From NCBI GenBank assembly GCA_045114665.1, contig JBGUKW010000318.1:1868-65867 (forward strand): 64,000 nucleotides of DNA, written 5' to 3'. The notes below the pieces were generated by a model. The model did not search any database. It had not been told where the DNA came from and worked only from the letters and a program-made list of their open reading frames with translations. Source of the DNA: Candidatus Xenobia bacterium. GTDB lineage: Bacteria > Vulcanimicrobiota > CADAWZ01. Shown here in pieces: positions 28,434 to 29,825 of the stretch. Each line of letters begins with the position of its first letter. Position 1 is the stretch's first letter. The position numbers were made by a program, and so were the translations under genes.

Positions 28434-29825
28434 TTAGAAACCGAATCCCAAGAATACATGACCATTGTTGCCATAGCCATTGCCATAAGATGTGTTGATT
28501 CCACCATTATTTCCCATTCCCATAGCCTGTTGCATTACTTTTTGTTTTGCCTGATTGAGTCTCTGCAATTTTTTCTCTATTGTCTTGATCTGTTTTTTGA
28601 TCATTTTGGCTTTTGATTTGTTGAGGAGCTTTTTCATCCAATTGCCAGAATCTGTATCAAGTTCGCTGAGTTTGATTTCAAGATTGACCATCTTTGATGT
28701 CAATTTGTGAATCTGCTGGTCAAGTTTTGAAATTTCCTGATTGAATTCACCACCAAAACCGATGTTTCCAATTCCACCGATTCCGCCGAAATCAAATCCT
28801 CCACCGATATATCCATTGCCATAGGCACCTGTTCCTATTGAACCATAGTTACCAAGACCATAGTTACCTGCACCAAAGCCATTGACACCACCGTAGTTAC
28901 CATAGCCACCACCGTAGTTACCATAGCCACCACCGATAGCTTGCATTCCATAGTTACCCATGCCCATGTTCATACCGCCAACATTCATGCCCATGTTCAT
29001 GCCCATACCACCGAACATGCCCATATTGCCATACATACCGAAGTTCATGCTGAAGTTGCCAACTTGCTGTTTTTCTATGTATTTGTGGTTCTTTACATCA
29101 ATTCCGACGATTCCCATTTCTTTAGCTGAGAGCATTTCGCCTTCGTCAACTTTGCCGTTGCCATTTTTATCTGTCCAGAATTTTGCTTGTTCAAGTTCTT
29201 TTTCATCAATATAGCCATTTTTGTCTTTATCAAAGATATCTTGAGCTTTTTCCCAAGCATTTTTGTATTTGTTCTGCTCGCCATTGAGACCAACTTCGTT
29301 CATCATTTCTCTTCCGTTGTTGATTTGACCGTCGCCGTTTTTGTCATATACGAGCTGAGCATCTTTTGTGTTCCATTCTTTAACTGTATCTACGATACCA
29401 TCGCCATTAATATCGAATTTGATGTTCTTTTTGAGTTTTTCAACATTGAGTTGACCATCATGGTTTGTATCGAGATAGAGTGGGTCTCTCTTTCCGAGTG
29501 TTGTGTCAAGATTTGTTGCCCATGCATCACCCATTGAGTATCCATAGATAGGAAGGTTGATTGAGCCGCTCATACCGAACATTCCGCCCATACCGAGCAT
29601 GCTCTGCATTCCGCCCATTCCATACATATTACCCATGCCCATCATTCCGTTCATTCCATACATGCCAGACATTCCGCTCATGCCCATCATTCCGTTCATT
29701 CCATACATACCGCCCATACCGAGCATACCTGAGAGCATTGAAGACATGTTGCCATAACCAAAGCTGGAACCAAAATTAGCATAGTTATTTATGATTGTGT
29801 TGAAGTTGACATTAAAGTTAACCAT
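28434..29825 (-). CDS. Gly/Met/Tyr/Asn-rich low-complexity protein with five central EF-hand-like Ca2+-binding loops and a C-terminal coiled-coil segment
   Basis: 463 aa. MGMGGMYGMNGMMGM-type repeats at both ends. Five DxDxDG loops (DTNHDGQLN, DINGDGIVD, DKNGDGQIN, DKDKNGYID, DKNGNGKVD). K/Q/L-rich heptad region near the C-terminus. No signal peptide. Matching nucleotide-level repeats (atgggcatgaacatgggc...). Confidence 0.6.
   Translation of the reverse strand: MVNFNVNFNTIINNYANFGSSFGYGNMSSMLSGMLGMGGMYGMNGMMGMSGMSGMYGMNGMMGMGNMYGMGGMQSMLGMGGMFGMSGSINLPIYGYSMGDAWATNLDTTLGKRDPLYLDTNHDGQLNVEKLKKNIKFDINGDGIVDTVKEWNTKDAQLVYDKNGDGQINNGREMMNEVGLNGEQNKYKNAWEKAQDIFDKDKNGYIDEKELEQAKFWTDKNGNGKVDEGEMLSAKEMGIVGIDVKNHKYIEKQQVGNFSMNFGMYGNMGMFGGMGMNMGMNVGGMNMGMGNYGMQAIGGGYGNYGGGYGNYGGVNGFGAGNYGLGNYGSIGTGAYGNGYIGGGFDFGGIGGIGNIGFGGEFNQEISKLDQQIHKLTSKMVNLEIKLSELDTDSGNWMKKLLNKSKAKMIKKQIKTIEKKLQRLNQAKQKVMQQAMGMGNNGGINTSYGNGYGNNGHVFLGFGF

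Follow-up and report, generated by a model that had tools for sequence, protein, structure and literature searches.

A small protein of a Candidatus Xenobia bacterium with a predicted FrpC-type self-processing module between glycine-rich low-complexity arms

The window analysed here, a 64-kb stretch of contig JBGUKW010000318.1 from a Candidatus Xenobia bacterium, carries on its minus strand a gene for a 463-residue protein whose core is homologous, by sequence comparison and modelled fold, to FrpC's self-processing module (SPM). The positions of this gene (hereafter the SPM gene) and of related features are listed in Table 1. An initial annotation had described the product as a Gly/Met/Tyr-rich protein with five EF-hand-like calcium loops and a coiled coil, assignable to no named family, and had proposed a Ca2+-responsive, self-assembling structural protein. 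The composition, the quoted peptides and the length of 463 residues were all found as described. The gene has a ribosome-binding site and, as also noted initially, a strong terminator hairpin of its own. Rfam searches over positions 27000-31000 detected nothing except the tRNA. The gene had further been placed in an AT-rich pocket beside a tRNA-Leu gene. The tRNA-Leu indeed lies 365 bp upstream, but only the flanking intergenic DNA is AT-rich, the GC content of the SPM gene being 0.366 versus about 0.31 for the window.

Long spurious open reading frames (ORFs) can arise on both strands from low-complexity repeats, and the initial annotation had allowed for a real gene on the opposite strand. 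The plus strand contains only ORFs of at most 116 residues, built of mirrored repeats. The ratio of non-synonymous to synonymous substitution (dN/dS) was computed against the orthologue at locus L002 (rumen metagenome-assembled genome (MAG) RUG13580, about 95% identical). In the minus frame it was 0.16 for the whole SPM gene, 0.09 for the N-terminal low-complexity arm, 0.13 for the folded core, 0.14 for the second arm and 0.34 for the helical segment. Homologues occur in more than 25 protein clusters, and the core gives a confident AlphaFold2 (AF2) model. Together with the ribosome-binding site and the terminator, these results refute a chance ORF in repetitive DNA or a true gene on the opposite strand, an explanation whose probability is now negligible. 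The ORF at 28434-29825 is a real gene under purifying selection. When the window is compared with L002, no block has diverged more: nucleotide identity is 87.7% (dS 0.41) in the SPM gene and 94-98% in the flanking genes.

The fraction of C-ending pyrimidine codons in the SPM gene is 0.50, compared with a median of about 0.2 (rank 3 among the 57 ORFs of the window), and its GC content at third codon positions (GC3) is 0.44 (rank 1). The top ranks are shared with the genes for ribosomal protein S16 (rpsP), PEP carboxykinase and ribosomal proteins S6 and L27. A codon bias like that of ribosomal-protein genes is the pattern typical of high expression; the SPM gene is thus probably strongly expressed and its product abundant.

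The protein contains 20.7% Gly, 11.7% Asn and 9.9% Met. Its extreme N-terminus reads MVNFNVNFNTIINNYANFG; the Met-Gly run that the initial annotation had placed there is present, but at residues 34-73. In the full-length AF2 model, residues 1-83 are disordered (pLDDT <50), residues 84-265 are folded, residues 266-357 are again disordered, and two helices (residues 359-389 and 396-440, pLDDT about 90) form a hairpin that is followed by a disordered tail (residues 441-463). The second Met-Gly/Gly-Tyr block (residues 255-354), the K/Q/L-rich helical segment and the Gly-Tyr tail (residues 442-463) had all been read correctly from the sequence. According to the model, the protein carries disordered, uncharged Gly-rich arms on either side of the SPM and then a Lys-rich helical hairpin. 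Residues 86-113, which precede the predicted cut, form confident strands alongside strand 248-263, so that the N-terminal fragment may stay docked until cleavage.

Charged residues are unevenly partitioned along the protein. Both arms and the tail together contain no Lys and a single acidic residue, the N-terminal arm (residues 1-85) having neither, and residues 1-99 are free of any charge. Of the 37 Lys residues, 20 are found in the SPM and 16 in the hairpin; the remaining one, K112, stands just before the predicted cleavage site. Because the first 99 residues are uncharged, no Sec or Tat signal was recognised (judged by eye), in agreement with the initial annotation. The C-terminal tail is 100% identical in the L002 orthologue, and most members of the SPM family likewise have an extreme C-terminus that is aromatic or hydrophobic. 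The arms differ from those of L002 chiefly by gain or loss of repeat units, with 25 gap positions over the two arms, 22 of them in the second. The underlying DNA consists of imperfect repeats with periods of 9, 12, 18 and 21 nt (69-94% match), those of 9/18 nt in the N-terminal arm and those of 21 and 12 nt in the second.

Sequences of this Gly/aromatic/Met type self-associate. In composition and predicted disorder, the arms resemble spider-silk GGX sequences, plant glycine-rich cell-wall proteins and FUS-type G/S-Y-G/S domains. They share GGY/GNY and G-M-x triplets with Gly/aromatic low-complexity proteins, without homology to them, and the main non-Gly residue of the N-terminal arm is Met, not Tyr, Leu or Gln. 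A Cu(I)-binding MxxM role for the Met-rich arm was set aside, since Met is swapped for Tyr, Phe or Trp in relatives.

A homologue search covering 5.8 billion proteins found 27 homologues, in which a core of about 165 residues is well conserved while the Gly-rich flanks are hypervariable. The Pfam family PF26745 ('SPM') is precomputed on 26 of the 27, homologues with 48-68% identity among them. When the single sequence was compared with the PDB (phmmer), the best match was the FrpC SPM (6sjw, E=1.9e-6), with query residues 115-258 aligned to SPM residues 1-144. In this alignment P115 falls on SPM residue 1, and D114-P115 corresponds to the Asp-Ala of the P415A precursor (6sjx). With the family profile, the FrpC SPM was matched at E=1.5e-10 and the next hit, calmodulin, at 1.4e-3. 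The AF2 model of residues 95-270 had a pLDDT of 88.8 and a pTM of 0.83, and a Foldseek comparison of the core with the PDB, a check the initial annotation had suggested, returned no significant match besides 6sjx and 6sjw (E about 5e-5, TM 0.58). The SPM fold, described as novel, has two perpendicular beta-sheets with adjacent N- and C-terminal strands, and the same arrangement is predicted for the query core. Taken together, these features indicate that residues ~86-265 are homologous, in sequence and modelled fold, to the SPM of Neisseria meningitidis FrpC (PF26745), and every computable criterion places the protein in the SPM family. The view that it belongs to no named family is thereby overturned on the initial annotation's own terms.

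The Pfam EF-hand_1 model matched above threshold (38.2 bits, cut-off 25.4, E=6.9e-10) only at the loop of residues 197-213, which argues that the calcium loops are not due to chance; the paired model EF-hand_7 stayed below threshold (28.8, cut-off 30). The likeness to EF-hands and dockerins noted earlier holds for the D-x-[DN]-x-[DN]-G loops but not for the families. A calmodulin-type EF-hand pair was rejected (Foldseek E=3.6, probability 0.06), the fold being mostly beta instead of paired helix-loop-helix, and a dockerin was rejected for lack of any Dockerin_1 (PF00404) match at E<=1. No S-layer or cell-wall family matched the protein in profile searches. Also rejected were FlxA-like (PF14282; 22.4 bits, cut-off 26.3, covering only the coiled coil at residues 366-433) and the Ca-binding type III secretion effector XopAW (16 bits, cut-off 120), while matches to FapA, Snf7 and syntaxin were sub-threshold coiled-coil noise. 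The protein is not an RTX, calmodulin-type EF-hand, dockerin or FlxA protein.

The functional residues of FrpC defined by Kubáň et al. 2020 (PMC7078468) were mapped through the query-FrpC alignment. The predicted scissile Asp114-Pro115 is invariant in all 19 close homologues, and the Pro in all 28 aligned sequences. The 19 sequences share the motif G-x-A-W-[DA]-T-x-L-x-[ST]-x-[LY]-G-[KRQ]-[RQ]-D|P-[VIL]-Y-L-D-T-N, where the bar marks the cut. The residue before Asp is Arg in the query and Gln in some relatives, unlike the Tyr of FrpC; in FrpC fusions the non-permissive residues at this position were D, G and P.

All five DxDxDG-type loops of the initial annotation (residues 119-127, 138-146, 161-169, 199-207 and 219-227) are present, and all lie in the SPM. 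The four Ca2+ sites of FrpC map onto D/N/E ligands in the query. For the first site, D119/N121/D123/G124 and D155 are equivalent to FrpC D419/D421/D423/G424 and D456 (PMC7078468). As a set of Ca2+ sites, the five loops therefore stand with one exception: loop 138-146 corresponds to FrpC DHNRDGIRT, which looks like a calcium site but to which no Ca2+ was assigned in FrpC (PMC7078468). Loop DKDKNGYIDEKE is the canonical EF-hand match. Ligand positions are mostly invariant or nearly so in the family alignments, and the stabilising Trp pair W451/W519 of FrpC, equivalent to W151/W217, is invariant in all 28 sequences. The Ca2+-binding core, disordered arms and coiled coil proposed initially are in this way borne out by SPM homology, predicted disorder and predicted helices, respectively.

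In FrpC, a transient fifth Ca2+ site and a narrow port involve D478, D579, L475, G477, G491 and residues 579-582 (PMC7078468). The narrow-port equivalents in the query are M174, N176 (G477), E177 (D478) and A190, a position that is Gly in most homologues. D579 probably corresponds to N257, where relatives have E, D or Q. In FrpC the D579N mutant was fully active and D478N partly active, and the SPM bound Ca2+ with a Kd of about 150 µM (PMC7078468). From the alignment, all residues known to be needed in FrpC appear to be kept or conservatively replaced in the query.

The following mechanism is proposed on the basis of FrpC and ApxIVA biochemistry. At the sub-micromolar Ca2+ of the cytosol, the SPM would be unfolded and the protein intact. 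At Ca2+ concentrations of at least about 0.1 mM, i.e. outside the cell, the SPM would fold cooperatively around four Ca2+ ions and strain the Asp114-Pro115 amide. The side chain of Asp114 would then attack its own carbonyl, breaking the chain and leaving a C-terminal aspartic anhydride on the 114-residue Gly/Met-rich N-fragment. This anhydride could either be hydrolysed, which would free the fragment, or be attacked by a Lys epsilon-amine, which would give an Asp-Lys isopeptide bond. More speculatively, cross-linking of the protein to itself or to its neighbours would produce a covalently cured surface or extracellular coat, matrix or glue, rather than serve a toxin action. We infer that the generic Ca2+-responsive gelation of the initial annotation should be replaced by predicted Ca2+-induced autoproteolysis at Asp114-Pro115 and Asp-Lys isopeptide chemistry.

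Work on NeissLock showed that efficient ligation needs proximity before the anhydride hydrolyses. Because of this need, of arms that are of a self-associating type and of the confinement of Lys to the SPM and the hairpin (bar K112), cross-linked self-assembly appears the likeliest outcome, and self-assembly of the arms would fit well as a proximity device for the cross-linking step. On balance, it is probable that the protein is a Ca2+-triggered, self-cleaving and cross-linking SPM protein, most likely acting as an extracellular material cross-linked to itself or its neighbours.

According to the primary literature, the SPM occurs only in Gram-negative pathogens, in RTX proteins longer than 1000 residues (PMC7078468). 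Its natural function is still unclear. The query is about 25% identical to the SPMs of N. meningitidis FrpC/FrpA and A. pleuropneumoniae ApxIVA (PDB 6SJW, 6SJX). FrpC-type hosts exceed 1000 residues and have RTX nonapeptides and a type I secretion system; in the 463-residue query protein no such repeats, and in the window no such secretion system, were recognised. The query also differs in a conserved stretch of about 30 residues ahead of Asp-Pro that is predicted to belong to the fold, and in the cargo that would bear the anhydride, a disordered Gly/Met polymer instead of a folded domain.

The core profile was searched against 1.84 billion cluster representatives, giving 14,313 matches at E 1e-3 (a set that probably includes plain EF-hand proteins), 2,934 at 1e-10 and 66 at 1e-30. 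The close subfamily of the query comprises only about six clusters. The other strong matches are mostly giants of about 900-7700 residues, while about 25 of the best 150 matches are proteins of 230-470 residues. Among 21 large SPM proteins scanned, RTX repeats were found in 11 and cadherin domains in 10, giving them an adhesin-like appearance; neither occurred in any of 42 small SPM proteins. These giant RTX/cadherin-type adhesins have one to five SPM copies, and some of these proteins score nearer to the query family than FrpC itself (E down to 1e-48). Many of the small proteins (P0034, P0100, P0074 and others) have signal-less N-terminal regions rich in G/M/Q/Y/S, and at least one of these is again from Xenobia. 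The closest relatives without low complexity are small proteins with signal peptides (L009 from Lacihabitans, P0029, P0030 and P0031; E 1e-54 to 1e-66). They share with the query family the AWDTTLA-TLG pre-cleavage motif and D|P[VI]Y[LM]D but differ from the query in bearing lipoprotein or Sec signals plus a folded N-domain, in stopping immediately behind the SPM and in lacking Gly-rich arms. The signals on L009, P0029 and P0030, the nearest of them, argue that this SPM subtype works outside the cytoplasm.

In species-representative genomes, relatives were found in the rumen or gut MAGs RUG13580, RUG13696 and CO.B36 and in MAGs labelled 'Candidatus Xenobia' and 'Vulcanimicrobiota', besides one bin labelled Selenomonadaceae and one Lacihabitans. 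The relatives belong mainly to Xenobiia/Vulcanimicrobiota, and the host is probably an uncultured rumen or gut bacterium, most likely of the class Xenobiia within Vulcanimicrobiota/Eremiobacterota. In one Ca. Xenobia MAG, the first of three tandem SPM genes (L001, 6301-8154) encodes a 617-residue paralogue in which the SPM and a Gly-Met arm are followed by about ten NGGxGNDxIxx repeats of 11 residues and by a C-terminal domain. An RTX reading of this paralogue is unsupported, as PF00353 does not match it and its beta-roll-like repeats have an 11-residue period.

Across the relatives, the constant unit is an N-terminal arm, [RQ]D|P and the SPM. What follows the SPM differs between them: it may be nothing, a coiled coil, Gly/Asp repeats of 11 residues or a helical domain. 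Conservation within clades covers the N-terminal 30 residues as well as the 20 that precede the cut. This pattern would also suit a self-releasing pro-peptide, whose product would be the free 114-residue Gly/Met-rich fragment (Gly/Trp/Phe-rich in relatives) with a bacteriocin-like, surface-active or signalling role. The SPM would then be a built-in Ca2+-triggered protease that liberates the fragment after export, and the anhydride would mostly be hydrolysed, which is a documented fate. We regard this as unlikely: profile searches found no homology to bacteriocin families, no immunity or export gene adjoins, the Lys-rich hairpin and the second arm would be left without a role, and the ribosomal-protein-like codon bias better fits an abundant structural protein.

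Directly downstream of the SPM gene lies the run ffh-rpsP-KH-ylqD-rimM-trmD-rplS-lepB. The window, L002, L004 and L012 all keep this order but differ in the other flank; the SPM gene is therefore resident in the lineage and not part of a tRNA island. A mobile island at tRNA-Leu was rejected on these grounds, the place upstream of ffh being kept in four genomes down to about 70% nucleotide identity. The best named matches of the Ffh protein of the window are from Vulcanimicrobiota, Eremiobacteraeota and Xenobiia (65-66% identity), followed by Firmicutes (61-63%). The only cultured member of the phylum is diderm, its envelope being of the typical Gram-negative kind (PMC9758169). At about 47.2-55.9 kb, the window carries a flagellar type III cluster.

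Apart from one protein, here called C2, no conserved neighbours were found in the related loci. Genes for C2 (about 590-660 residues) directly follow the SPM gene in L001, L006, L007 (twice) and L008, and a 27% identical homologue is near SPM genes in L010/L011. C2 is helical with a CxxC...CxxC zinc ribbon, and its gene adjoins small SPM genes of two divergent subfamilies, with which it forms a conserved pair of genes. Beyond the zinc ribbon, it had no match in Pfam, NCBIfam, PADLOC or the PDB, and no homologue of it was detected in the 64-kb window. The anti-phage defence library PADLOC had no match for the SPM protein either.

A cytoplasmic-looking partner beside divergent members (L001, L006, L007 twice, L008 and L010) would suit a protein that responds to damage from within the cell. 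Here a cytoplasmic, disordered and perhaps condensed pool would be held until an envelope breach admits millimolar Ca2+; the SPM would then fire, and the protein would link itself or C2 into a plug or clot. The lack of a recognised export signal on the protein, the abundance suggested by codon bias and a Ca2+ threshold far above cytosolic levels are in line with such a role. However, signal peptides are found on the nearest relatives of the SPM subtype, the large relatives look like adhesins, the window lacks the partner gene, PADLOC gave no match, and such a responder has no known precedent in bacteria. This explanation is very unlikely.

Several points weigh against a Ca2+-triggered, cross-linking extracellular protein. 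The narrow-port residues G477 and D478 are replaced by N176 and E177 (the three FrpC residues G477/D478/D579 read N/E/N in the query), and the module is cut short in its C-terminal part, where the last hairpin has about 20 residues fewer than that of FrpC. The equivalence of N257 and D579 comes from manual alignment and an AF2 strand, what argues for Ca2+-triggered cleavage is residue conservation, and PF26745 was assigned through the precomputed annotation of homologues, not through a score of the query itself. The RTX nonapeptide model PF00353 (GGxGxDxUx) did not match the query, no Sec or Tat signal was seen by eye in the N-terminus, and no ABC exporter, HlyD/membrane-fusion or TolC gene was found among about 40 scanned ORFs of the window; exposure of the module to high Ca2+ is thus hypothetical. 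Lastly, C2 looks cytoplasmic and hints at an intracellular step, which is the main point that an extracellular model leaves unexplained.

With its shortened C-terminal part and replaced G477, the SPM-like core could also be a Ca2+-binding switch for arm assembly in a structural protein that undergoes no autoproteolysis, which is in essence how the initial annotation saw it. Versions that do not cleave probably exist, since Asp occupies the position before the cut (P1) in 33 of the 42 small SPM proteins and Ser-Pro or Thr-Pro stands there in the other nine. For the query itself this is quite unlikely. In none of the 19 close homologues does the Asp-Pro vary. It is embedded in a conserved pre-cleavage motif of 20 residues, with about 60-80% identity to the query across the conserved core, and this invariance would stay unexplained if the bond had no role; the residues that FrpC requires are, besides, present or conservatively replaced.

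The nine proteins without Asp-Pro are P0074, P0076, P0077, P0082, P0085, P0019, P0022, P0115 and P0137, the last with Ser-Thr. In five of them the dipeptide comes after a Gly/Asp run. They may be non-cleaving modules or use a different chemistry.

Within the preferred reading of a Ca2+-triggered, cross-linking protein, a more specific form can be envisaged, namely a one-component calcium-cured material. The arms would condense or associate in a silk-like manner, and the SPM, on meeting millimolar Ca2+, would stitch the Lys-free arms through Asp-Lys isopeptides to the Lys-rich SPM or hairpin of neighbouring molecules, giving a coat, glue or wound plug. C2 might hold the protein in check or help its export. 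This specific form is put forward tentatively and is, as it stands, rather doubtful.

Table 1. Coordinates of the SPM gene, its predicted protein segments and sites, and C2 partner genes of related loci
Feature	Position	Strand	Remark
Complete CDS, 463 residues incl. stop, ATG start	28434..29825	minus	ORF list
Shine-Dalgarno AGGAGG, 7 nt 5' of ATG	29833..29838	minus	Read directly
Intrinsic terminator, 16-bp stem, loop of 3, T-tract	28372..28406	minus	28 nt past stop
tRNA-Leu(CAG)	30191-30273		365 bp upstream of SPM gene
N-terminal disordered low-complexity arm, residues 1-85 (G/M/N/S/Y), (G-M-x)n triplets	29571..29825	minus	Composition, AF2
Folded FrpC-type SPM with family-specific pre-cleavage strands, residues 86-265	29031..29570	minus	
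Predicted scissile bond Asp114-Pro115, codons GAC CCA	29481..29486	minus	Aligned to FrpC D414-P415
Ca loop DTNHDGQLN, residues 119-127	29445..29471	minus	FrpC incomplete EF-hand site
Loop DINGDGIVD, residues 138-146	29388..29414	minus	FrpC DHNRDGIRT
Ca loop DKNGDGQINNGRE, residues 161-173 (D161-E173; DKNGDGQIN, residues 161-169)	29307..29345	minus	FrpC D462-E474
Ca loop DKDKNGYIDEKE, residues 199-210 (D199-E210)	29196..29231	minus	FrpC D499 loop
Ca loop DKNGNGKVDEGE, residues 219-230 (D219-E230)	29136..29171	minus	FrpC D521-E532; W217 (FrpC W519) precedes
Second disordered low-complexity arm, residues 266-357 (G 41%, N, M, Y), no Lys	28755..29030	minus	Composition, AF2
Lys-rich helical hairpin / coiled coil, residues 358-441, 16 Lys	28503..28754	minus	
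Gly/aromatic C-terminal tail ending FLGFGF and stop (Gly-Tyr tail, residues 442-463)	28434..28502	minus	
C2 partner gene, L001	11101-12957		
C2 partner gene, L006	10762-12549		
C2 partner gene, L007	10537-12510		
C2 partner gene, L007	13638-15530		
C2 partner gene, L008	10555-12327		
C2 partner gene, L010	5062-6948		

Several features around the SPM gene were also recorded. Between its terminator and ffh there is a 344-bp insertion (27989-28332); L002 lacks it, and its two flanks join directly there. The minus strand of the insertion has a perfect TTGACA-17-TATAAT promoter (28274..28246) and, after it, about 250 nt that are non-coding and rich in hairpins. The insertion occurs once in the window and has no Rfam match; it may represent a small RNA gene, or else an insert whose promoter drives ffh. 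A conserved run of four genes (30327-33214), shared with L002 and L003, lies directly upstream of the tRNA-Leu. It consists of a 91-residue ORF without match, an ORF whose ankyrin-repeat match is weak and below threshold, and genes for a B3/4-domain and a Fic-domain protein. Farther away, a block of about 7.8 kb (15350-23170) is missing at the matching junction in L002 and represents an insertion or deletion polymorphism; it carries genes for an AdhE-type aldehyde/alcohol dehydrogenase, two Fe-only-hydrogenase-like proteins and a SpoIIE-type phosphatase. A 469-residue ORF at 6906-8315 corresponds to the C-terminal cytoplasmic half of FlhA only (FHIPEP profile 326-656), without the membrane domain; some 40 kb separate it from the flagellar cluster.

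Very few natural devices make a reactive protein anhydride out of ordinary amino acids. The SPM is among them, and it underlies self-cleaving purification tags and the NeissLock covalent-targeting technology. Literature searches found no description of small SPM proteins that lack RTX repeats and are flanked by low-complexity sequence, although automated Pfam annotation already tags them. The locus described here and about 40 related small proteins show that the module also exists as a compact RTX-less unit, fused in the barely studied Xenobiia/Vulcanimicrobiota to intrinsically disordered Gly-rich polymers. This would broaden the known distribution and architecture of clip-and-link chemistry, and it offers, for engineering, an SPM of anaerobes that is shorter and divergent and carries another residue ahead of the cut. 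The analysis also yields a concrete hypothesis, the Ca2+-triggered covalent self-cross-linking of a low-complexity protein. If the calcium-cured material proves true, clip-and-link chemistry would gain its first natural role beyond RTX proteins, and bacteria their first analogue of transglutaminase-type clotting.

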